Position numbers and translations under genes: made by a program. Of a DNA stretch of 64,000 nt, positions 4,635-52,062 are shown in pieces. Source of the DNA: an uncultured Thermoplasmata archaeon. GTDB taxonomy: Archaea; Thermoplasmatota; Thermoplasmata; UBA10834. The notes below the pieces were generated by a model, which did not search any database, had not been told where the DNA came from, and was given only the letters and a program-made list of their open reading frames with translations. Position 1 is the first letter of the stretch, and every line of letters begins with the position of its first letter. The stretch spans positions 96,001 through 160,000 of the forward strand of contig CAVRDX010000003.1 in the NCBI GenBank assembly GCA_963719945.1, in the 5' to 3' direction.

Positions 4635-5357
4635 TCACTTCTTTTTCTTGAGTCCTCTGATAGAGTCTTCGACGAGGTTGGGTAGCGACTCCCTGTATAT
4701 CTTCAGATATGCGTAAATCACTACAGCCGATGCTGCAGCCAGCCCTATCAGGTTCAACGGTGGCTCGACGATTTCGAACATGAAGAACGGTACCATCAAT
4801 AGGTTGTATCCGAGATGGATCAGAAGTGCCTCGATGAAGTATCCCTTCACCTCTCCCCTCGCGACTCCCACTCCTATCAGTGTGGTCGTGGCGCCGTGGA
4901 GCAGAACGAGCTGTAGGCCGAGGAGTGAGTACGCGATCATGTCTACAGCCTGTAGGTTCTCCACACTAACCGCGCTCGCGAATATCGTAGCGAACGTGAA
5001 AGTCGCAGATATCCCAAGCCCTAGGGATAGTCCGTAGAACGCGGTATCGATCTTCCGCTGGAACCGTGGGAAGTTCAGGATGATTACCTTGAAGAGTTCC
5101 TCCATGACTGCAAAGCCGACTATGAGTGCCAGTATGGTCTCGACAGAGGACATCATCTGGCCCCAAGATTCGAAGGCGAACATGATCATCCCCAGGACTA
5201 TCCCCAGGGCGAAGAATGCGAAGACCTTCCGGTCATCGAAGAACGGTTTCTCCACCTTCGGGAAAGTGTACTCATTGAGGGTGAAGAACATCAGGGTGAG
5301 CGCTGGTGCAAATCCCGCGATTGCACTGGCGACGGTTATCATGTCTACCATGGTCAT
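4635..5357 (-). CDS. PrsW-like intramembrane protease family protein
   Basis: Multiple TM helices with EELFK, LLHG and IHLGYN motifs. Confidence 0.7.
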   Translation of the reverse strand: MTMVDMITVASAIAGFAPALTLMFFTLNEYTFPKVEKPFFDDRKVFAFFALGIVLGMIMFAFESWGQMMSSVETILALIVGFAVMEELFKVIILNFPRFQRKIDTAFYGLSLGLGISATFTFATIFASAVSVENLQAVDMIAYSLLGLQLVLLHGATTTLIGVGVARGEVKGYFIEALLIHLGYNLLMVPFFMFEIVEPPLNLIGLAAASAVVIYAYLKIYRESLPNLVEDSIRGLKKKK

Positions 5358-5432
5358 CTTACTGTATTCCTAGGACGTTGATAACTTTATAGGGTGTAGC
5401 TATGGTGACGGGATGGTAGGGAGACCGATTTA

Positions 5433-5690
5433 ATGGCTAGATGTTCGCGATGCGGGAAGGATATCGGCCCAGCGTCTCAATGTCCGAGCTGTGGATATCC
5501 CCCGAGTCAGAGCGTGGTAGGCAAGAGCATCGACAAGGCGGCCGTCGTGGCTGGCGAGGTCATAGAGAAGGTTGTGAAGGAGGCAGAACCCGTATTCAAG
5601 AAGGCGATCGATCTCGGGACGAAAGGGGTCTCAATAGCGAAAAGCAAGACCCTCGAAGTCGCTAAGGATCTGAAAGAGATGGATCAGTGA
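5433..5690 (+). CDS. Small zinc-ribbon protein with amphipathic helical tail
   Basis: CSRCG...CPSCG; upstream GGGAG RBS and TATA-like TTTATA. Confidence 0.65.
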   Translation: MARCSRCGKDIGPASQCPSCGYPPSQSVVGKSIDKAAVVAGEVIEKVVKEAEPVFKKAIDLGTKGVSIAKSKTLEVAKDLKEMDQ

Positions 5691-5691
5691 T

Positions 5692-7623
5692 TCATCTCTT
5701 CCGTTTCTTCTTCTCAACCTTCTTGGCAGGCTGTTCCATGTTGCCCGCGAGTTTGTCGAAGTAGTGTGCTACGACGCAGCTGTCCGCACACTTTCCGCAT
5801 CTCGTGCATTTCTCAGAATCCACAAATATTCCGTTGTCGACCTTTATGGCGCCCTTGGGGCAAGCTCTCACACAGATGCCGCATGAAGTGCACAGGTTCG
5901 CCCTGAGCACGGCCCTCGCAAGCTTATCGAACAAGATCGAGGATTCCTTGGGGCTGTCGGCAACGGAGCTTATCTGGCCAGCGGCGAAGACCTTTCCTCT
6001 ACCCCGGTTGGTATCGACCATGGCGACACCGAAGTCCTCCATAGTCCGCACATCACCGATGGTCTTCAACACCTCAGCTACTTGCTCGAACCCACGGGAT
6101 TGAGGCGTATCCAATACGGCCTCGATCGAGTATCCTCCCGCTATGCATGGACTGACGCCTTTCACAAGCCTCAGCGAGAGAGTGTCCGCTCTCTTCATCT
6201 CGATCTTTATCCCCAACCTTTCGGCGAGCTCCCTCATCTTGGGCGGGAGTTCTTTCCATCTCCAGAAGCCATGTGCGACGAATTCTTTGGGTAGGTCGTG
6301 CTGGTCCGCCCAGGAATTCAGTCTCATCTCCCACACCTTCGCTAGATTCGGGCTGATCCTGGATATCTCCGCACACTCGCTCGCAAGCGCTGACGGACAC
6401 ATCCAACACCCGACTCTCTCGATGTCCTCGTCGTACAATGCATTATACTGGAGCTTCCTCCAGATTATGTATAGCCAGACATCGAGGCCTGTCCAATCCC
6501 TTATCGGGTTGACGATCACCTGTCCAGGCACGAACGGATTACCATCGACCAGCTCCAGTCTGGATCTCGCGAACGATTCCAGCTTCCTGTTTCCCTCGAC
6601 TGTGATGGTACCCTGCGGAAAATTCTCTTCGATGACTTGAGACACTGGAGCGAGCTTGCATACCTTGCAGCACCATCTGAAATCTTTCGCGGGTGGACCG
6701 AATGCATCGAAATGCTCGTCAAAAGCGTTCCCGGCAGATGCAGTTATCAATCTGAGTGATAGTGAATGCCTTATCTTCTCCACATATTCCCTGGTCTGTG
6801 GATGTTCGAGACCAGTGTCGATGTAGATGGTGGTGAAATCGTTAGTGATCGAACGGACCATGTCGAGAACGACCAGACTATCCTTTCCCCCACTGAAGGA
6901 AATGGTCAAGGGCAGGTTGTGTTTTGAAAGCACATCCTTGATTTCATGCTCTGCCTTGGCCTTCTTGGCCGAGAGATACTGTTCGTTAGCTCTGACGACT
7001 GCCTTCGTCCAAGCGCGCTTGCCTGATCGGAGCGGCCCGAATTTCGCAAAATCCCTGACGCGCACTCCCTTGGGGTTGATCTTGAGCTGGGACGCATTGA
7101 CCTTGGCTGTGCCGCATCCGATGAACTTGCCCATCTGGATCACGACCTCGTCGCCTTCTCGGATGCCGGGGTCGTAGCTCTCTATGTATTCCGGGGGCAG
7201 ATGCTTTCCCTTCATGTGCCCCTCCGCCTTGCTGAGCTTGATCAACTTCTTCGTGTTCCTGGCAGCGAGCATCCTGGCGCCATCGAGTCTGAGCGTGAGC
7301 GAATAATCCTTCTTCTCCAGGTCGTAGGCGAGCTTCGCGACCCTTCGCCCATCTATGATGACCTCGTCTGCCCTGTCCTCACCCGAGGTCTTGTTGAGTA
7401 TGACGACCTCGGGCACTATCTGCTGGACCCCGAACTGCCTGAGGAAGAGGTATCTCAACCTCCTCTTCGTCCCTTCGAGCGCGAGTCTGACCTCTCCTGG
7501 CGGGGCGAGGTCGACAAACTCACCATAGTCACCGCATTTCCCGCAGTATTTCCCTATCAGTGGAACATTGCACCTGTCGCACCAGAGTAGCGGGTGTTGG
7601 GAATCGCTATGGTATGGGCTCAC
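5692..7623 (-). CDS. PAPS reductase-family protein with PUA and 4Fe-4S domains
   Basis: PP-loop SFSGGKDS, RWCCKVCK, RVGCWMCP, N-terminal Zn ribbon, PUA-like region, C-terminal CxxCxxCxxxCP. Confidence 0.88.
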   Translation of the reverse strand: MSPYHSDSQHPLLWCDRCNVPLIGKYCGKCGDYGEFVDLAPPGEVRLALEGTKRRLRYLFLRQFGVQQIVPEVVILNKTSGEDRADEVIIDGRRVAKLAYDLEKKDYSLTLRLDGARMLAARNTKKLIKLSKAEGHMKGKHLPPEYIESYDPGIREGDEVVIQMGKFIGCGTAKVNASQLKINPKGVRVRDFAKFGPLRSGKRAWTKAVVRANEQYLSAKKAKAEHEIKDVLSKHNLPLTISFSGGKDSLVVLDMVRSITNDFTTIYIDTGLEHPQTREYVEKIRHSLSLRLITASAGNAFDEHFDAFGPPAKDFRWCCKVCKLAPVSQVIEENFPQGTITVEGNRKLESFARSRLELVDGNPFVPGQVIVNPIRDWTGLDVWLYIIWRKLQYNALYDEDIERVGCWMCPSALASECAEISRISPNLAKVWEMRLNSWADQHDLPKEFVAHGFWRWKELPPKMRELAERLGIKIEMKRADTLSLRLVKGVSPCIAGGYSIEAVLDTPQSRGFEQVAEVLKTIGDVRTMEDFGVAMVDTNRGRGKVFAAGQISSVADSPKESSILFDKLARAVLRANLCTSCGICVRACPKGAIKVDNGIFVDSEKCTRCGKCADSCVVAHYFDKLAGNMEQPAKKVEKKKRKR

Positions 7624-7745
7624 GGGCCGTCCTAGACCTGATGCGGTAATTAAACTGTGCGGTCCATAGCCATCCAGGTCCGCCTAACCAATCATTTAGA
7701 GATTAGGCAATCTATAATTAGACGGTTCATCTCATTCCGTCTCCG

Positions 7746-8432
7746 ATGCGCAGGCGGCATGATGAGGCGTACACAATCGTCGAGCCAAACTACTCCTCAA
7801 GCTATACGATCGATCCCTACGGTGTGAGTTACATAGCTCCTCGCAGACCGTTCTTCAGCAAGACCGAATTGAAGAATATCGCACTTGCAGTCGGCGTCTT
7901 GATACTCGCACTCACCCTCGTTCTATGGAACAGGGACATTGTCTCACTACCATTCACCGTGACGTTAGCCATCATGGCAGTATTCCTTGGGTTCTTCTCC
8001 CATGAGATGGCTCATAAGGTTCTTGCACGAAGGTACGGGTGCTGGGCAGAGTTCAGGGCCGACATCCGCGGCCTCGGATTCGCGTTGCTCCTATCGTTTC
8101 TCGGATTTCTATTCGCGGCACCTGGTGCGGTATATATCATGGGTCGTGTCTCAAAGGAACAGAACGGCAAAATCAGTATAGTTGGCCCCGCCTCCAACCT
8201 GGTGATAGCACTAGCCTGCTTGCCCTTCTTGGATTTATGGGGCTTCGGCCTACCAGGAGTTGTTGCGAGCATCGCGTTCAGTCTATACTTCTTCAACACA
8301 TTCCTGGCGGTGTTTAACATGGTGCCCATCCCTCCATTGGATGGGTCGAAGATATGGATGTGGAATAAACCAATCTATATCGTCTGCATGACGGCCGCAG
8401 TCTTAATGTTCATCCTTGCATGGATTGCATGA
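7746..8432 (+). CDS. Site-2 protease (peptidase M50) family
   Basis: HEMAH and FNMVPIPPLDG motifs with TM helices. Confidence 0.92.
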   Translation: MRRRHDEAYTIVEPNYSSSYTIDPYGVSYIAPRRPFFSKTELKNIALAVGVLILALTLVLWNRDIVSLPFTVTLAIMAVFLGFFSHEMAHKVLARRYGCWAEFRADIRGLGFALLLSFLGFLFAAPGAVYIMGRVSKEQNGKISIVGPASNLVIALACLPFLDLWGFGLPGVVASIAFSLYFFNTFLAVFNMVPIPPLDGSKIWMWNKPIYIVCMTAAVLMFILAWIA

Positions 8433-45306: not shown

Positions 45307-45804
45307 GTGTCACAAATGGATGAACGGACGGTCTCTGAATCAAAGACGATGGTTGCCAGGGTGATGATGCCACAGGATGCCAACGTCGCCGGGAATGTGT
45401 TCGGTGGAACTATCCTGAAGATGGTCGATGAGATAGCTTATGTGGCAGCCACGAGGCATGCTCGCACTAACGTCGTCACAGCATCGGTTGATCGGATGTC
45501 TTTCCTGTCTCCGGTCCATGTCGGCGACCTTCTCACGCTGAAGGCGAACGTGAATGCGGTCTGGCATTCATCAATGGAGGTGGGAGTCCGTGTGGAAGCC
45601 ATGGATCCGAGGACCGGGGAGACAAGGCACACTGGCTCTTCCTACCTGACCGTGGTTGCCCTCGATTCCGATGGAAGGCCCGTCTCCGTGCCTCAATTGG
45701 TGTTGGAGACCGACGAGGATGTCCGCAGGAATAAGGAATCGTTCGCAAGACGGTCCAGAAGACTCGAGGAGAAAGCAGTCGAGAGGTTCCGTTCGAAGGA
45801 ATAG
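45307..45804 (+). CDS. Acyl-CoA thioesterase (hotdog fold)
   Basis: DANVAGNVFGG, VTASVD, SMEVGVRV, VALD. Confidence 0.92.
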   Translation: MSQMDERTVSESKTMVARVMMPQDANVAGNVFGGTILKMVDEIAYVAATRHARTNVVTASVDRMSFLSPVHVGDLLTLKANVNAVWHSSMEVGVRVEAMDPRTGETRHTGSSYLTVVALDSDGRPVSVPQLVLETDEDVRRNKESFARRSRRLEEKAVERFRSKE

Positions 45805-45898
45805 TCTATTCGCTGGCCTGACTGGTATATCAATCTTGTCTTATTGGCGACTTCGGGGTTTTTATGGCAGTAATAGACTTAACCCTCAGGATGATAGG

Positions 45899-47356
45899 TT
45901 GGCAAAGGCAGTCTACGACCCATTGAATTCTGAACAGGAAGATGCAGTGCACCTGGAATCGATCAGGATATTGGAGAATGTGGGGATCAAGGTGACGAGC
46001 CCCAAGGTTCTCAAGATGTTGAAGGATGCTGGGGGGATTGTTGATGAGAAGACCCAGATCGTGAAGATATCAGAGGCGATGATCAAGGAAGCCTTGTCCA
46101 AAGCCCCTAAGGAATTCACGATGTGTGGTAGAGACAAGAAATGGGACCTGAGACTTCCAGCAACGGATAGGATTTATGGGGTCAATGACGGACAGCCGAC
46201 CGATGTCTGGGACATAGATACTCAGAAGAAGCGCAAAGCTACCATGAGGGACCTGATCGACCTCACGCGCGTATGCGATGCCATGCAGGAAGTGGATCTC
46301 TATTGGCCAGAAGTCGTCGCCACAGACCTGCCGCCAGATGTATCCAATAATCACGAATTCGTCGCATCGATATTCAACACCGGAAAGCACATTCAGCACG
46401 GTGCAGGCTCCATCGAGGATGCCCGGTTCCAGATAGAGGCCGCCGCCGCGATAGTTGGTTCCGAGGAGGCACTAGCCAAGAGGCCGATAATCTCGATAAC
46501 GCACACGCCCATAACTCCGCTCAGATACGAGGAGGGCGATATCGATGCCGTCGTCGAGTTCGCAAAGGCCGGACTTCCAGTCGTCCACCTGTCTATGGCA
46601 ATATCCGGCTCGGTGGCACCGGTGACGCTAGCAGGTACGATCTCCCTCGTCAACGCTGAGAACCTCGCGGGCGCAGTCATATCGGAGCTGGCAAAGCCAG
46701 GTGCGCCAATACTATACAGTTCTGAATCCGGACCGATGGATATGAAGACCGGTGTCTTCCTGTCCGGTTCGACTGAGGGCGCTTTGATCAACGCTGCCGG
46801 CTGCCAGATGGCTCGCAGATACGGCCTGCCTTCACAAGTGGGCGGGACCGCGGCGTCAGGATGTATGCCTGGTTATGAGATAGGATACCAGAAGGCGATC
46901 AGCAGTCTCCTTCCAGCGATGGCCGGCGCCGATCAGATCGTCGGGATCGGCGGTTTCGAACGTTCTGGAGTCGAGTCGGTCGAGCAAATCGTGATGGATT
47001 GCGAGTTGTGGAGAAACGTCCTGCGCGCTTGGAGAGGGGTCGAGGTATCCGACAGCACATTGGGTTTCGATGTCATATCGAGAGTCGGTCCTGGCGGTTA
47101 TTTCATGAAGGACCCACACACCCTTCGCAATTTCCGGAAGGAGATGCTCCTGCCGAAGATCGCAATGCTCCCGCCGATTATGGGTTCGGACACGGAACCT
47201 ATCCGAGTCGCTGCGAGGAACGAAGCACGGAGGATCCTAAAAGAGCACGAACCAATGGGAATCGATCGTTCTGTCAGAGGGCAGATAATCGCGCTACTGT
47301 CGAAATACGATGAGATGGCCGGCGTTTGTCCTGTTCAGGTCACATATCTTGACTGA
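45899..47356 (+). CDS. Trimethylamine methyltransferase (MttB) family protein, non-pyrrolysine (second copy)
   Basis: VHLESIRILENVGI, PVTLAG...NAENLAG, DMKTG, VGPGGYF...HT. No internal TAG. Confidence 0.88.
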   Translation: MAKAVYDPLNSEQEDAVHLESIRILENVGIKVTSPKVLKMLKDAGGIVDEKTQIVKISEAMIKEALSKAPKEFTMCGRDKKWDLRLPATDRIYGVNDGQPTDVWDIDTQKKRKATMRDLIDLTRVCDAMQEVDLYWPEVVATDLPPDVSNNHEFVASIFNTGKHIQHGAGSIEDARFQIEAAAAIVGSEEALAKRPIISITHTPITPLRYEEGDIDAVVEFAKAGLPVVHLSMAISGSVAPVTLAGTISLVNAENLAGAVISELAKPGAPILYSSESGPMDMKTGVFLSGSTEGALINAAGCQMARRYGLPSQVGGTAASGCMPGYEIGYQKAISSLLPAMAGADQIVGIGGFERSGVESVEQIVMDCELWRNVLRAWRGVEVSDSTLGFDVISRVGPGGYFMKDPHTLRNFRKEMLLPKIAMLPPIMGSDTEPIRVAARNEARRILKEHEPMGIDRSVRGQIIALLSKYDEMAGVCPVQVTYLD

Positions 47357-47402: not shown

Positions 47403-48521
47403 ATGCAATTCTCAGAATGCAGAGGATACGATCGTTCCCTGGTCACAGGCGCGAAAGCTGCGATCAAAGATGTCCTAGCTCTGAAGAAGGACGAGCGGAT
47501 TCTGATAATATCGAATCCGAACCGAGATGTTCGCGAGATATCGATGGCTATCTTCGATGCAGCAATGAATGTCAAGGCAAAGCCTGTCCTGATGTTCCAG
47601 CGGGAGAAGGGGCAGTTCGACTTCGCGGAGAAGGATGTCATCTCGGCCATGTCTTCGGAGCCTGACGTGATTCTGTCGATAAGCAAGGACCGGTTCGGGA
47701 AGGATAAACACGGACTTCTTGAAGGGTACATGGGGAAAAGGAAGTACAACGACATCTTCGAGATGCTATACGAGGAAGAGAAGGCTAGGGCCTTCTGGTC
47801 CCCTGGTATCACCCGCGACATGTTCAGACGAACAGTCCCGATCGATTACACGCGTCTGAGGAAGGACTGCAAGAGGATATGTGCGATTCTCAAGGGTTCA
47901 GAGACGGTCAGAGTCACCGCTCCAGGAGGAACCGATCTGGTGATTGGGTCGAAGGGTCGCATCGCCAAGATGGATGACGGGGATTTCAGGAAGAAAGGCC
48001 GGGGTGGGAATGTTCCCTCGGGCGAAGTCTATGTCTCTCCAGCATTGGGTACCACCAATGGCGTGATCGCATTTGACGGGTCCATCGTCCTCAACGATGG
48101 TGAGATCGTCATGCGTGATCCCATTGTAGCTCAAATCAAGGATGGATACATAACGAAGATAGATGGCAGGAAGGAGGCCAACGCTCTGAGGAACTCGATC
48201 CGGATCGCCAAGAGAAAAGCCCGTTCGATGGGCAATGCCGGTCTGTTGAAATCGTCGGAGGTCGAGAGCTACATCAAGAACACTGAGAGCATCGGTGAAC
48301 TGGGCATCGGTCTCAACAGGAAAGCCAAGATTGTCGCGAACATGCTCGAGGACGAGAAGGTCTATGGCACGTGCCACTTCGCAGTTGGTAGCAACTATGA
48401 TGGCGATGCAGACTCCCTGATCCATTTGGATGGCCTGGTCAAATCCCCGACGATAACAGCAGTGTCATCTTCGGGACGAGAGACCGAAATTATGCGGAAG
48501 GGGAAGCTGACCTGGGATTGA
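47403..48521 (+). CDS. M29-family (AmpS/AmpT-like) aminopeptidase
   Basis: GNVPSGEVY, GELGIGLN, EDEKVYGTCHFAVGSN, HLD. Confidence 0.88.
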   Translation: MQFSECRGYDRSLVTGAKAAIKDVLALKKDERILIISNPNRDVREISMAIFDAAMNVKAKPVLMFQREKGQFDFAEKDVISAMSSEPDVILSISKDRFGKDKHGLLEGYMGKRKYNDIFEMLYEEEKARAFWSPGITRDMFRRTVPIDYTRLRKDCKRICAILKGSETVRVTAPGGTDLVIGSKGRIAKMDDGDFRKKGRGGNVPSGEVYVSPALGTTNGVIAFDGSIVLNDGEIVMRDPIVAQIKDGYITKIDGRKEANALRNSIRIAKRKARSMGNAGLLKSSEVESYIKNTESIGELGIGLNRKAKIVANMLEDEKVYGTCHFAVGSNYDGDADSLIHLDGLVKSPTITAVSSSGRETEIMRKGKLTWD

Positions 48522-48564: not shown

Positions 48565-49347
48565 ATGGAGGAACAACTCAGAGTTGGCGCGATTGATGAT
48601 GAGACCTTTGACAGGTCCCGTCGGATTGGATGGCTTGACCTAGATGCGGTGTTCAGGGCAAAGGTCCTCATGGTCGGCGCAGGCGCTTTGGGGAACGAGG
48701 TCGGGAAGAACCTGATGCTCTCAGGCTTTCGTCATGTGACCGTTGTGGACATGGACCATGTCATGGGCTCGAACTTGAACCGATGCCTCTTCTTCTCACG
48801 AGAGGACGCTTCCAGACGAAATCCCAAGGCGGAAGTCGTCGCCCGGGGAATGAACGCCCTCTCCGAACATGCTGAAGTAGAATCGATTTCATCCATGATC
48901 GAGGAATTGGATGAAGGGATATACAAGGTCCACGACATCATCCTCGGCTGTCTTGACAATATCCCTGCACGACTTCATGTGAATTCACGATCCTATCGGT
49001 TCGGGAAGACCCTGATCGATGGCGGGATGGAAGGGTTTGTTGGCCGAGCCTTCGTCGCCAATCCTCCGAACGGCGCATGTATCCAATGCGGCATGAACCG
49101 TTCACATGCGAAGGTTGCGAACCTTCGATTCAGCTGTACTGGGACGGATATGGTATTTCATGAACCTAGGATTCCCGCCGAGATCACGACTACCAGCGTC
49201 ATATCGGCTATCATGGTAAGGGAATGTCTAAAATTCGTATCTGGTAGGATGGATATGATGCTGTCAAATGCTTTCTTCTACGACGGTCAGAGGAATGTCT
49301 CAGAAGAGCTGGAATTCGATATCGATCCACTTTGTCCAAATCACTGA
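48565..49347 (+). CDS. Ubiquitin-activating enzyme E1 (ThiF/MoeB fold, Uba3-like)
   Basis: VGAGALGNE, DMD...SNLNR, LDN..AR, IDGG.EG, CIQC, putative catalytic SCT, C-terminal CPNH. Confidence 0.9.
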   Translation: MEEQLRVGAIDDETFDRSRRIGWLDLDAVFRAKVLMVGAGALGNEVGKNLMLSGFRHVTVVDMDHVMGSNLNRCLFFSREDASRRNPKAEVVARGMNALSEHAEVESISSMIEELDEGIYKVHDIILGCLDNIPARLHVNSRSYRFGKTLIDGGMEGFVGRAFVANPPNGACIQCGMNRSHAKVANLRFSCTGTDMVFHEPRIPAEITTTSVISAIMVRECLKFVSGRMDMMLSNAFFYDGQRNVSEELEFDIDPLCPNH

Positions 49348-49410
49348 GGCCCGAGTCGTTGCTACAGGTATCCGAAAACGATATAATGTCAACAGCCGTC
49401 AGTCGTCTAG

Positions 49411-49659
49411 GTGATCTTTCTGACTTTCAGACTCAAAGTAAAGAACGCAGAGACAGGTGCTGCCGTCGAGATGGAGCTAGAGGGTGACAATACCATCGAT
49501 GAGATCATCGAGAGCGCCGCCACTTTCTGGAATAAGGACATGGGCGCATATGTCCTGAGAAAGGGCAAGAAGGTGCTTCGCGGTGGTTCCTCTATCAAGG
49601 ATGCCGGGATAATTGGCGAAGATGTGCTGGAACTCATTCCAGATCCTGAAGGCGGATAG
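49411..49659 (+). CDS. Ubiquitin-like beta-grasp protein with free C-terminal GG
   Basis: About 80 aa with a ubiquitin-like pattern (LKVK..TG...MEL...TI...GKKVL...SIKDAGI...LEL), ending PEGG-stop. Confidence 0.88.
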   Translation: MIFLTFRLKVKNAETGAAVEMELEGDNTIDEIIESAATFWNKDMGAYVLRKGKKVLRGGSSIKDAGIIGEDVLELIPDPEGG

Positions 49660-49664
49660 TAGGG

Positions 49665-50186
49665 ATGTCTCTTCCGGCTGATGTGCTCAGAAAGCGTCTA
49701 AAGAACGAGATAGAGATTTGTCAACGTGAGCTCAGGCATCATATCTCTGTCTCTGATCCGGCCATCATCTCCTTCCCTATTTTGATCAACGTGCACATGC
49801 TGCGCGTACCAGGCCCTACATGGGAGGAGAACAAGATTGTACACAGGTTCGTTCATAAGATTGCGATTCTGATAAGTGAGGAGTATCCGATCGAGAAACC
49901 GATAGTCAAGTGGCAGACACCAATCTTCCATCCGAACATAATGCCCCCTGAGGACGGCGGTTATGTGTGTACGAAATTGCTGGAGAACTGGGATTTCAGC
50001 TCGACCTTGGCTACATTCATACGGGGTATCGAATCGCTTTTGGTGAATCCGAATCCAAAAAACCCGTTCGGATGTGACACATGTACTAGAGCCGCTGCAT
50101 ACTTCAATCGTGTGAGATATCAGCCGCCTACTGTGATGGATCAGACGGACCGTAGAATCAGGATTGTGAGGGGTTCCGATGCCTAG
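49665..50186 (+). CDS. Ubiquitin-conjugating enzyme E2 (UBC family)
   Basis: KRLKNE, YPIEKPIVKWQTPIFHPNI...GYVCTKLL..W...TL...IESLLVNPNPKNP. Confidence 0.93.
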   Translation: MSLPADVLRKRLKNEIEICQRELRHHISVSDPAIISFPILINVHMLRVPGPTWEENKIVHRFVHKIAILISEEYPIEKPIVKWQTPIFHPNIMPPEDGGYVCTKLLENWDFSSTLATFIRGIESLLVNPNPKNPFGCDTCTRAAAYFNRVRYQPPTVMDQTDRRIRIVRGSDA

Positions 50187-50823
50187 GCCAAGGATCGTTA
50201 ATGAGATCCAGCTCAAGATTTCAGAGATAGCGCCGCCATCAGTTGACAGCATCAATCATCATGATTGGCTATCCGAGGAATCCCTCTCGGCATTCCATCG
50301 GGTTCTTGAGTCTGGGTCAACATTTGAAATGTACTTGTCCGAAGCTGCAAACTGCAAGATCGTGTCCCAAGCGGAGGATTCGGCTCCAAAGAGGCTCGAG
50401 GTGATGGGGTTTATGTTGGGCGAGGTGTGTTCTTGGAGAGGCGAGACTTACACGATCGTCTGGGATATCGGCACAACCTCTCTGAATAGCACGACTGCGA
50501 AGGTCAGGTTTGACCATAGGGCACTTCCGCGACTCTTCGGTGAACTCGATCGTTCTGGATTCGATTATGTCATAGTCGGCTGGTACCATTCCCATCCCGG
50601 GCACACTTGTTTCCTGTCAAAGACTGACCTCGACACTCAAAAGGCCATGTTCAATCAACCTTTTCATTCCGCGCTTGTCGTAGACCCGATAAACGCCGAT
50701 GTCAAGGTCTTCAAGCTCTCGGATCAGGGGTATCGCGAGGTTCCGTTTGCCATCACTTGCGCGGCTCGTGAAGGTAGAGCCGTGGAGAATCGTCAACGCA
50801 TTCGCCGACTCAAGACGAGATGA
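50179..50823 (+). CDS. JAMM/MPN+ metalloprotease (Rpn11/CSN5-like)
   Basis: EVMGFMLG, VGWYHSHPG...LSKTDLDTQ, ALVVDPI. Overlaps the E2 3' end by 8 nt. Confidence 0.93.
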   Translation: MPRPRIVNEIQLKISEIAPPSVDSINHHDWLSEESLSAFHRVLESGSTFEMYLSEAANCKIVSQAEDSAPKRLEVMGFMLGEVCSWRGETYTIVWDIGTTSLNSTTAKVRFDHRALPRLFGELDRSGFDYVIVGWYHSHPGHTCFLSKTDLDTQKAMFNQPFHSALVVDPINADVKVFKLSDQGYREVPFAITCAAREGRAVENRQRIRRLKTR

Positions 50824-50904
50824 ATACATATGGTATGTGGGGGTATCTCTGGAAAGGTTTTTCGTGTCGACTTGTGTTAAGGAGTCAGGAGCCGGGGATG
50901 TAGA

Positions 50905-52062
50905 GTGACGAATGCGTATCGACTTGCCTGCATAATCGCAATGGTTGCTATAGTGTCGTCATCCATCCCTGTGAACGTATCCGGGGCCGCGGACTATGCT
51001 CTCTTTGTATCCGTCGACGAGACCAAGGTGAGCATGATATCTGGCAATTTCTCTGTTGCCGTGACCAGGGACTGGCCCCGAATCATATTCTGGCATACGA
51101 TCGATCCATTCTCGCCGACGTTCGAAGCTAGTTTTCCTCGGATGCATGTATTCAATGACTCTGATGACGACGGGATCTTCTGCAGATCCGAGGCCGTTGG
51201 CACGGTGTTCTTCGACTCCAATCATGCTACCTGGAACCTCTCCTCGATAATCTCTGATTATACTCCCGATATGGGCGAATACGCCATGTTCAGCATGTCT
51301 GCGGAGACATCAGTGTACAATGTATCCGGAGTAGGCCCTGCCATCATTGAGAACTGGGCGAATGTCACTTTCTGGTTCTGCTTGGCTGAGAAATCTGTCA
51401 CCTATGAAGCGCCTTTGGGCAGTTTTGTTGTTTCTGGCAAGACTGAGATGCGAGTCAACATGACCATTAGGATCAATAATTCCACATTCGCAGATTATAT
51501 CGCACTTGAGCGATTCCTGCAAGGTGGAGGAACGACGAATTCGTTCTTGGTGACGGAGGGTGATTTCCGATCCGATCCGGTTCTCACGCTTCTGTCTGGG
51601 TGGGACGATGAGACTCTCCTCGGCGAAGACTACACGAGACCTCTCAGGCAGACAGATGACGCAATCCAGGGCATCATGTACATCAAGGCGGATAAGACCG
51701 CTCAGGCACATTTTCTCTGGGGCACGGCTGCGCTGATGAACAACAAGTCATCGTCATTTGATTATGTGCTTGGTTCATCGTGCTACACAACAGGCGCTGG
51801 TCTGATGTTGCATTCCGCCATTCCTATCTCCAATGATACATGTTCCATTGGAGACCAAACTATCATCGGAATCGATGAATCGGGGTTTGTCGGAGGAGTC
51901 AGCGATTGGATAATGGAGTATCTTCCAGTGTTCGTCGGACTCATCATAGCCACAACGATATCTGTGCTGGCATTCTATCTCATCCGAAAGAAGCAGAAAA
52001 TCAAATCAAAAACGGAATCTGCGGATGATCTCGAGACGGATGAGATTCTGGGCGGTGTCTAG
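50905..52062 (+). CDS. Secreted membrane-anchored hypothetical protein
   Basis: Signal peptide, DSDDDG Ca-like motif, C-terminal TM helix and Lys-rich tail. Confidence 0.75.
   Translation: MTNAYRLACIIAMVAIVSSSIPVNVSGAADYALFVSVDETKVSMISGNFSVAVTRDWPRIIFWHTIDPFSPTFEASFPRMHVFNDSDDDGIFCRSEAVGTVFFDSNHATWNLSSIISDYTPDMGEYAMFSMSAETSVYNVSGVGPAIIENWANVTFWFCLAEKSVTYEAPLGSFVVSGKTEMRVNMTIRINNSTFADYIALERFLQGGGTTNSFLVTEGDFRSDPVLTLLSGWDDETLLGEDYTRPLRQTDDAIQGIMYIKADKTAQAHFLWGTAALMNNKSSSFDYVLGSSCYTTGAGLMLHSAIPISNDTCSIGDQTIIGIDESGFVGGVSDWIMEYLPVFVGLIIATTISVLAFYLIRKKQKIKSKTESADDLETDEILGGV

Follow-up and report, generated by a model that had tools for sequence, protein, structure and literature searches.

An uncultured archaeon of the Thermoplasmata (assembly GCA_963719945.1) carries, within the 64,000-nucleotide (nt) stretch of contig CAVRDX010000003.1 that was analysed here and is called the window throughout (contig positions 96,001–160,000, forward strand), four contiguous forward-strand genes encoding the parts of a predicted ubiquitin-type protein-tagging system. 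These are an activating enzyme (E1) of 260 amino acids (aa) at window positions 48565–49347, a ubiquitin-like modifier (Ubl) of 82 aa ending ...IPDPEGG at 49411–49659, a conjugating enzyme (E2) of 173 aa at 49665–50186, and a JAMM/MPN+ metalloprotease of 214 aa at 50179–50823. The E1 and Ubl genes lie 63 nt apart, the Ubl and E2 genes 5 nt apart, and the E2 and JAMM genes overlap by 8 nt, exactly as the original prediction, an earlier reading of the same DNA, had described them from the list of open reading frames (ORFs). Its gene assignments also stand: hidden Markov model (HMM) searches placed ThiF, UQ_con and JAB above their gathering cut-offs and left the Ubl without a Pfam match, and the fold model and conserved residues described below agree. 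The source genome comprises 1.78 Mb in four contigs, with an estimated completeness of 87% and contamination of 0.91%. G+C content is uniform across the operon region (0.50–0.54), and the flanking ORFs have the housekeeping character that had been claimed for them, encoding tryptophanyl-tRNA synthetase (TrpRS), a thioesterase, an MttB-family protein, an M29 peptidase, SIS-domain and TIM-barrel proteins and the ribosomal proteins L18e, L13 and S9. The flanks that were read contain no mobile-element genes, the whole 64-kb window not having been scanned for integrases.

The E1 matches the Pfam family ThiF (1.5e-43, 149 bits), and its best sequence matches in the PDB are the E1s of NEDD8, SUMO and ubiquitin (2e-22 and 83 bits for eukaryotic UBA3), with MoeB/ThiF at 2e-12 and Citrobacter BubCD at 4.7e-6. 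At sequence level it has the adenylation domain and catalytic cysteine of archaeal and eukaryote-type cascades. Conservation across 64 sequences is at least 97% at the GxGxxG motif (G40, A41 and G43) and at R17, D62, D64, N70, R73, K88 and D131, as it is at a predicted zinc site (C172-x2-C175 ... C257-x2-H260) and at C191, the predicted catalytic cysteine, which stands in an RFSCTG motif (an R-x-S-C-T-G loop). Pfam finds no rhodanese domain, and scores on the NCBIfam models for MoeB, ThiF and UbaA fall far under their cut-offs (56.7 vs 450 bits for UbaA). Length is tightly kept, at 254–281 aa in 62 of the 63 E1s from the related loci described below, the remaining one having 214 aa. A search of 1.84 billion representative sequences returned 11,270 matches at E <= 0.001, of which the top dozen are 250–315 aa long and many proteins of ~380–450 aa rank next. 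These longer relatives, referred to here as ~400-aa E1s, share every motif of the window E1 in the alignment and combine the ThiF domain with a C-terminal region of ~130 aa that contains Cys pairs and has no Pfam name. In a phylogenetic tree the short E1s form one clade of 29 rows separate from the ~400-aa E1s, with a Shimodaira-Hasegawa-like approximate likelihood ratio test (SH-aLRT) support of 98, which suggests that the short forms share a single origin; this tree, however, was built by a quick method, without eukaryotic, Asgard or Caldiarchaeum proteins and with a very long MoeB-like outgroup branch (4.24), and its 'short E1' group is partly length-defined, seven of its rows having been picked by length. 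The rows from the 63 locus E1s were obtained by keeping those of 250–285 aa and then taking every third.

The Ubl is counted from a GTG start and has a core of ~79 aa. It gives no Pfam match, ThiS/MoaD (PF02597) included. An AlphaFold2 model built on a 42-sequence alignment shows a beta-beta-alpha-beta-beta-alpha-beta grasp with a mean predicted local distance difference test score (pLDDT) of 85.5. Among its 794 structural matches at E <= 0.001, the best that Foldseek found in the PDB are SUMO1, ubiquitin, Caldiarchaeum ubiquitin and NEDD8, with template modelling (TM) scores of 0.77–0.85 (TMq 0.85 for Caldiarchaeum ubiquitin, 6fno_D). The C-terminus reads P-D-P-x-G-G, with P77-D78-P79 and G81-G82 invariant in all 42 sequences and K42 and K53 nearly so. 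The protein has, then, both the beta-grasp fold and the C-terminal di-glycine of a ubiquitin-cascade modifier, and because the stop codon directly follows the GG it is translated in mature form. The same holds for the end of the Ubl in 48 of 70 relatives, while one or two extra residues follow the GG in 20 and longer tails in two; a protease would be needed in these 22 to expose the GG end, and the pattern fits a reactive Ubl C-terminus with the adjacent JAMM as its processing enzyme. Among the homologues listed (120 of 378 matches), none has a Pfam domain and those with names are all called 'hypothetical protein', so that automated surveys of archaeal ubiquitins will miss this modifier. Its ending, ...P-E-G-G, should be of practical use, as digestion with Glu-C should leave di-Gly on modified lysines and standard K-GG enrichment should therefore apply.

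The E2 matches UQ_con (4.4e-14; 52.7 bits, cut-off 27), and its best PDB sequence matches are eukaryotic E2s (3.3e-13, 53 bits). The HPN motif and catalytic cysteine of the UBC fold are intact: IFHPNIM (H89-P90-N91), Cys102, W109 and P129-N130 do not vary in any of 31 aligned sequences. Between HPN and Cys there appears to be an insertion of three residues when the spacing is compared with that of common eukaryotic E2s. C19 and C140 are likewise invariant in all 31 sequences and could bind a metal or be joined as a disulfide. Genomes of the Thermoplasmata family f4 (G029, G054, G063, G072 and G081; 2.3–5.2 Mb) encode as many as four E2 paralogues each, some scoring 78–84 bits on UQ_con vs ~53 bits for the operon E2; either the system may have expanded there, or a second system, closer to the eukaryotic kind, may be present.

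The protease matches JAB (3.6e-11; 43.3 bits, cut-off 22.5) and Prok-JAB (1.2e-6), and is the sole JAB match in the source genome. Its best PDB match is the Rpn11-like protein of Caldiarchaeum (6fjv/6fju; 4.7e-17, 65.5 bits), ahead of yeast and human Rpn11 and of CSN5. The E...HxH...S..D site of an Rpn11-like JAMM is intact, with E74, H137-x-H139, S147 and D150 at least 97% conserved among 73 sequences. We predict that the enzyme acts as a de-conjugase and, in those relatives with a tailed Ubl, also processes the modifier.

When one genome per species was scanned, 164 stretches were found to encode relatives of the E2, and the best 80 were analysed as related loci. All 80 bear the names Thermoplasmata, Thermoplasmatota, Methanomassiliicoccales or older euryarchaeal names, which agrees with the host first proposed. 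Searches with tblastn recovered the Ubl in 76 of these loci, JAMM in 76 and E1 in 65; downstream, SIS-domain and TIM-barrel genes (both on the opposite strand) were found in 60 and 58, and L18e, L13 and S9 in 46, 45 and 43, with TrpRS upstream of the cluster in 34, many of the misses being contig ends. In a few loci other genes separate E1 from Ubl, or E1 does not adjoin Ubl. Operon and TrpRS...L18e-L13-S9 neighbourhood are nevertheless kept together in most of the 80, and the cluster is single-copy and occupies the same core-genome position beside L18e-L13-S9 across orders, a setting consistent with the predicted resident role rather than with a defence island. The E2 occurs in 32 of the 41 nearest genomes and, of the 301 genomes sampled from the class, in 131, which include 71 of the 199 of high quality and represent 40 of 88 genera. 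In this class sample it is near-universal in family f1 (37/39) and was not found in families f11 (0/37), f19 (0/33), f25 (0/16) and f10 (0/7); the cluster is present in all four genomes of f26. A profile of the Ubl matches 96 of 401 sampled genomes of the phylum, other classes included, with 14/14 in f35 and 5/5 in f52, and went undetected, or nearly so, in the large families f38 (0/36), f46 (1/53) and f49 (0/24). Since the genomes are related, none of these counts are independent. Of the four proteins the Ubl is the most conserved, with median identities to the window of 81% in near and 61% in far relatives, against 77% and 53% for E2, 65% and 49% for E1 and 54% and 42% for JAMM; ribosomal protein S9 gives 80% and 66%. 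Distribution and conservation together fit an old, vertically inherited and strongly constrained system that has suffered losses, and not a mobile defence island.

We consider it likely, judging from gene content, conserved residues and genomic setting, that the operon serves protein tagging of the ubiquitin type, as a resident and vertically inherited system of the Thermoplasmatota. Its working may be envisaged as follows. The 260-aa E1, presumably a homodimer as are MoeB, ThiF and Uba5, would bind ATP-Mg and adenylate the C-terminal glycine of the Ubl, which would then form a thioester on Cys191 in the E1 crossover loop and be handed to Cys102 of the UBC-fold E2. Aminolysis would move the Ubl onto lysines of target proteins, either directly or aided by unlinked RING-like proteins, and the Rpn11-like JAMM would strip the tag again, besides exposing the GG in relatives with 1–10 residues past it. 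Genes for two subunits of the 20S proteasome and for two ATPases of the Cdc48 type are also present in the source genome, and it is plausible that tagging is tied to the proteasome and to Cdc48/VAT ATPases through the Rpn11-like JAMM.

Should a ligase (E3) take part, candidates would have to be sought away from the operon. Three unlinked proteins of the source genome share a C4HC3 domain, C-x2-C-x(9-12)-C-x-C-x4-H-x2-C-x6-C-x2-C: a 339-aa protein encoded on the minus strand (G000:C1:26424-27440; L002:769-1788), in which the domain is accompanied by ~six zinc ribbons, and two others at G000:C1:674603-674770 and G000:C1:457118-457243. Genome matches to zf-RING_2 are sub-threshold (best 23.9 bits; 19.5 bits for the 339-aa protein; cut-off 27.3), as are those of the C4HC3 domain to Prok-RING_1 and zf-C3HC4_2. 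A model of the domain (core pLDDT ~85, overall 70) finds RING E3 domains in all of its top 50 PDB fold matches, at E values of 3e-3 to 3e-2 and none <= 0.001. Complex prediction for the E2 and the RING-like domain (residues 48–112) scored 0.49 vs 0.00 for the best control, with contacts agreeing by at least 96% between runs and a partner pLDDT of at least 72, and lends the pairing weak support. In calibration, 58 of 80 solved complexes passed, against 2 of 110 mismatched pairs; both of these mismatches, but only seven of the 80 solved complexes, passed with scores <= 0.60. A pass in that range is wrong in most cases, save where there was good prior reason to expect the pairing. The pass may also reflect mere likeness, as many E2-RING complexes have already been solved. 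A search with the first 130 aa of the 339-aa protein gave matches in 181 of the 301 class genomes, families without a detected E2 included, so that co-occurrence does not single out an E3, and clear orthologues (E < 1e-40) are limited to family f1. The three proteins are accordingly weak E3 candidates, and direct, E3-independent transfer by the E2 is equally possible.

Some further observations concern these RING-like genes. That of the 339-aa protein adjoins a putatively FtsZ-like ORF, so named by reading, and has a gene for a 20S proteasome subunit ~5 kb away. Many relatives have RING-like frames of ~1500 aa broken by a single in-frame TAG (for example G004:C1:149371-149562 and G018:C1:688307-688492), a codon that might be read through there or might encode pyrrolysine, and a RING-like paralogue in the source genome ends with TAG right past the domain. 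Read-through of a TAG after the second RING-like domain of the source genome was considered and rejected, the downstream frame being closed.

Several points weigh against the tagging system as we have drawn it. The relay chemistry of this clade is deduced from sequence, in which every feature needed for the predicted thioester transfer and de-tagging is present. In canonical E1s the ubiquitin-fold domain (UFD) recruits the E2. The window E1 has no C-terminal domain of this kind, such as the Caldiarchaeum/Asgard-type cascades possess, and stops at C257-x2-H260, where its ~400-aa relatives run ~130 aa further in the alignment. No separate copy of such a domain turned up in the genome, of which 87% is estimated to be present (lowest E values 0.029 by tblastn and 0.015 by HMM). 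The archaeal E1-like proteins treated in passages of PMC5654768 are described with a C-terminal ubiquitin-like domain. UQ_con covers only residues 63–141 of the E2, the N-terminal third being divergent. No RING is encoded among or between the four genes, where cascades of the Caldiarchaeum/Asgard type include a RING-type E3, and the unlinked RING-like domain is also present in families in which no E2 was detected (f25, 15/16 vs 0/16; f10, 6/7 vs 0/7). The label 'eukaryote-like' of the original prediction suits the E2 and JAMM by their PDB matches but fits the E1 less well, which stands nearer to the prokaryotic ~400-aa E1s (up to 152 bits) than to UBA3 (83 bits).

Other explanations of the locus have to be set against these data. 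The Ubl might be solely a sulfur carrier, thiocarboxylated for cofactor or tRNA thiolation in the manner of ThiS, MoaD, SAMP2 or Urm1 and never conjugated, and the E1 is indeed of ThiF/MoeB size, has the same zinc-site layout and scores on the MoeB and ThiF models. Archaeal SAMPs and Urm1 serve sulfur transfer and conjugation alike. An HPN/Cys E2 and an Rpn11-like JAMM, however, lack any sulfur-transfer role, and both Ubl and JAMM accompany the E2 in 76 of 80 loci. The class in question, which comprises E1-only sampylation and sulfur-carrier systems, combines a ThiS/MoaD modifier with an E1 of the UbaA, MoeB or ThiF type and has no E2; here, the modifier has a ubiquitin/SUMO-like fold and no ThiS match in Pfam, the E1 is without a rhodanese domain and far from the UbaA cut-off, and the genome has, away from the operon, its own MoeB-like ThiF protein (254 bits) as well as three ThiS/MoaD genes. 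An exclusive role in sulfur transfer is therefore highly improbable. Even less credence is due to an assembly or binning artefact, be it a chimeric contig or a bin contaminated by DNA of eukaryotes or bacteria, for which only the draft state of the genome (four contigs, 87% complete) could speak. Such an artefact, of which the original prediction named the chimeric contig as a way in which it might fail, is contradicted by dozens of independent assemblies that show these four genes ordered and flanked alike, records titled as complete chromosomes (CP070736.1, CP070767.1 and OY970070.1) among them, and by the uniform G+C content and low contamination, and its probability is negligible.

Bil/Bub systems act in defence, and the operon might likewise be antiviral, conjugating its Ubl to virus proteins upon infection. 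It has the E1, E2, JAB and Ubl gene set of the anti-phage operons; an E1-Ubl-E2-JAMM set without an operon E3 matches the prokaryotic operons that hold the nearest outside E1s, one of these ~400-aa relatives being titled Bryobacterales; and the E1 gives partial matches to CBASS E1-E2 models (4e-13) and to the 6A-MBL cap2_3 model. Yet in PADLOC the E1 matches just the E1 half of such fused E1-E2 models, E2 and Ubl have no match and the JAB matches are weak, so that the locus shows neither the defence-model match nor the patchy, island-like distribution of that class. A single copy at a fixed core-genome site beside L18e-L13-S9 across orders, near-universal presence within families (f1 37/39, f26 4/4, f35 14/14), a Ubl conserved like ribosomal protein S9 and flanks free of mobile-element genes where they were read all argue against it. 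We regard defence as an unlikely main function; an additional role against viruses beside a housekeeping one is possible. The resident tagging system of the Thermoplasmatota is thus the reading that we retain. A bolder version of it, which we advance only tentatively and think rather less probable than not, is that a pared-down cascade has come down by vertical descent from an early thermoplasmatotal ancestor, with a UFD-less E1, an E2, an Rpn11-like protease, a Ubl conserved like S9 and no operon E3, and that it supplies a housekeeping proteostasis tag read by Cdc48 and the proteasome.

The spacer between the E1 and Ubl genes contains a promoter-like element on the forward strand (49362–49387), made up of CTACAGGTA, then GAAAAC, which resembles a B recognition element (BRE), and then an ATATAAT/TTTAAC box. 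This A/T-rich, TATA-like box is centred ~27 nt before the Ubl start codon. The motif (ctacaggta...gaaaac..tttaac) stands at an equal distance before the Ubl gene in nine of the 20 relatives inspected, and the Methanomassiliicoccales loci have the variant gaaacctttaac. The element may be an archaeal BRE/TATA promoter giving rise to a separate, possibly leaderless transcript of Ubl, E2 and JAMM. A conserved opposite-strand gene for a 275-aa protein lies between E1 and Ubl in the Methanomassiliicoccales-type loci L056, L058 and L061, joined in the last two by a gene for a membrane protein; these insertions indicate that E1 can be uncoupled from Ubl-E2-JAMM.

Upstream of the operon are an MttB-family methyltransferase ORF without internal stop (45656–47356) and an M29-family aminopeptidase gene (47403–48521), the latter co-directional with E1 and ending 43 nt before it; the peptidase is syntenic in 34 of the 80 related loci, in nearer relatives only. 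At 50905–52062, 81 nt past JAMM, follows an ORF for a 385-aa protein without Pfam match, and a T5 run lies between the two at 50858–50862. The protein has hydrophobic N- and C-terminal segments, as judged by eye from the translation. It too occurs in 34 of the 80 loci (median identity 41%), and its confinement to the nearer relatives places it outside the core system.

Parts of the operon had been noticed singly before, and the original claim of a lineage not credited with such a system was to that extent overstated. A 'Ca. Thermoplasmatota E2' clade appears deep in the archaeal tree of E2s and ubiquitin E2 variants (UEVs) presented in a 2023 preprint (bioRxiv 10.1101/2023.07.25.550441, in the part concerning that tree). 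In a passage of PMC4453063 (2015), PSMD14/Rpn11-like MPN proteins are credited to just two archaea, through WP_019177758 of Methanomassiliicoccus luminyensis and the protein of Caldiarchaeum, both placed nearer to eukaryotic Rpn11/Rpn8 than to the JAMMs that cleave SAMPs; neighbouring E1, E2 and Ubl genes go unmentioned in that passage. The RefSeq name of M. luminyensis WP_019177757.1, an orthologue of the window E2, is 'ubiquitin-conjugating enzyme E2', and we infer that WP_019177758 is the orthologue of the window JAMM, the consecutive accessions suggesting that the two genes are adjacent. All four genes are present in a metagenome-assembled genome of Methanomassiliicoccus sp. (locus L079), whose E2 is 51% identical to that of the window. 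In the relevant sections of the reviews and surveys, complete operons are described in Aigarchaeota (PMC4571572, with an addendum on Loki; PMC6053391) and in Aigarchaeota and Asgard (PMC5654768), and the list in PMC4327156 includes a single marine group II euryarchaeote, with a ubiquitin C-terminal hydrolase (UCH) and RINGs. What stands of the original claim is the operon as a whole, of which no description in Thermoplasmata or Methanomassiliicoccales was found in the full-text literature, supplementary material and subscription journals aside; from the M. luminyensis system, the parts of these papers that bear on it note only single genes.

If the bolder version of our reading is correct, E1-E2 tagging was established in archaea outside TACK and Asgard, and so probably before these parted from the euryarchaeal lineages. 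The predicted cascade, of a simplified form, is a stable feature of the core genome in a large phylum of euryarchaeal grade. The operon would bear on the age of the E1-E2 relay, as a data point for an origin outside TACK/Asgard. According to the parts of the literature concerned, archaeal E1/E2 cascades have so far been reconstituted only from proteins of the uncultured Caldiarchaeum (PMC5654768) and of Asgard archaea. With a cultured methanogen, M. luminyensis, as a host, the in vivo function of an archaeal E1-E2 cascade becomes testable, as does the means by which an E1 without a ubiquitin-fold domain would hand its cargo to an E2.

Three known systems invite comparison. Haloferax sampylation employs SAMP modifiers, the E1 UbaA and the deconjugase HvJAMM1, and has no E2. 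The window operon resembles it in its GG-ending beta-grasp modifier, its ThiF-type E1 of similar size and its JAMM deconjugase, and differs in possessing an E2 and in the scores of its enzymes on the NCBIfam models NF047750 and NF041370, the JAMM reaching 32 bits vs a desampylase cut-off of 130 and the E1, as stated, falling far short of the UbaA model.

The operons of the ~400-aa E1s, which are the nearest E1 relatives outside the clade, were represented by a metagenome set of 80 loci (L111-L190) probed with Thermoplasmata-derived HMMs. An E2 was detected in 50 of the 80 and a JAMM in 51, and the window-type Ubl in none; these operons we take to overlap with the bacterial Bil/Bub-type and 'prokaryotic antecedent' operons. 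The order E1-Ubl-E2-JAMM recurs in L156, L112, L177 and L180, with an unrelated small protein ending in GG in the place of the Ubl. In L156, for instance, the E1 has 406 aa, the Ubl 89 aa (ending ...AGG), the E2 175 aa and the JAMM 253 aa. The shared gene order shows that the E1-Ubl-E2-JAMM architecture is widespread in uncultured prokaryotes. Their E2s and JAMMs are nevertheless more distant from those of the window, at no more than 45 bits (vs 53 for eukaryotic E2s) and 58 bits (vs 65.5 for Caldiarchaeum), and their E1s carry the ~130-aa C-terminal domain with Cys pairs that the window E1 lacks. One such locus, L164, with a high-GC E1-...-E2-JAMM operon, has zinc-finger-like ORFs at 5203–5562 and 7087–8361, whose C-P-Y-C-R-F...C-x2-C...H-x2-C-W motifs have a RING/PHD-type look; some of these outgroup operons may encode an E3-like partner.

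The cluster of Caldiarchaeum subterraneum (PDB entries 6fjv, 6fju, 6fno and 6fnn), as far as the published passages on it go, likewise unites a GG beta-grasp modifier, a ThiF-type E1, an HPN/Cys UBC-fold E2 and an Rpn11-like JAMM. The differences lie in the small RING finger protein encoded there, which has no counterpart in the window operon; in the nine-residue propeptide of its ubiquitin, where the window Ubl ends at GG; and in its JAMM gene, which is juxtaposed and divergent, whereas that of the window is co-directional and overlaps E2 (both the latter features as given in passages of PMC5654768). The ubiquitin-like domain at the C-terminus of the archaeal E1-like proteins described in that paper is absent from the window E1. 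The hosts differ as well, the Caldiarchaeum/Asgard type belonging to TACK or Asgard archaea and the window to the euryarchaeal-grade Thermoplasmatota. On the evidence of its sequences, the system appears to be a simplified form of a known kind of cascade, with a UFD-less E1, no RING in the operon, a cryptic but conserved Ubl and a fixed position in the genome.

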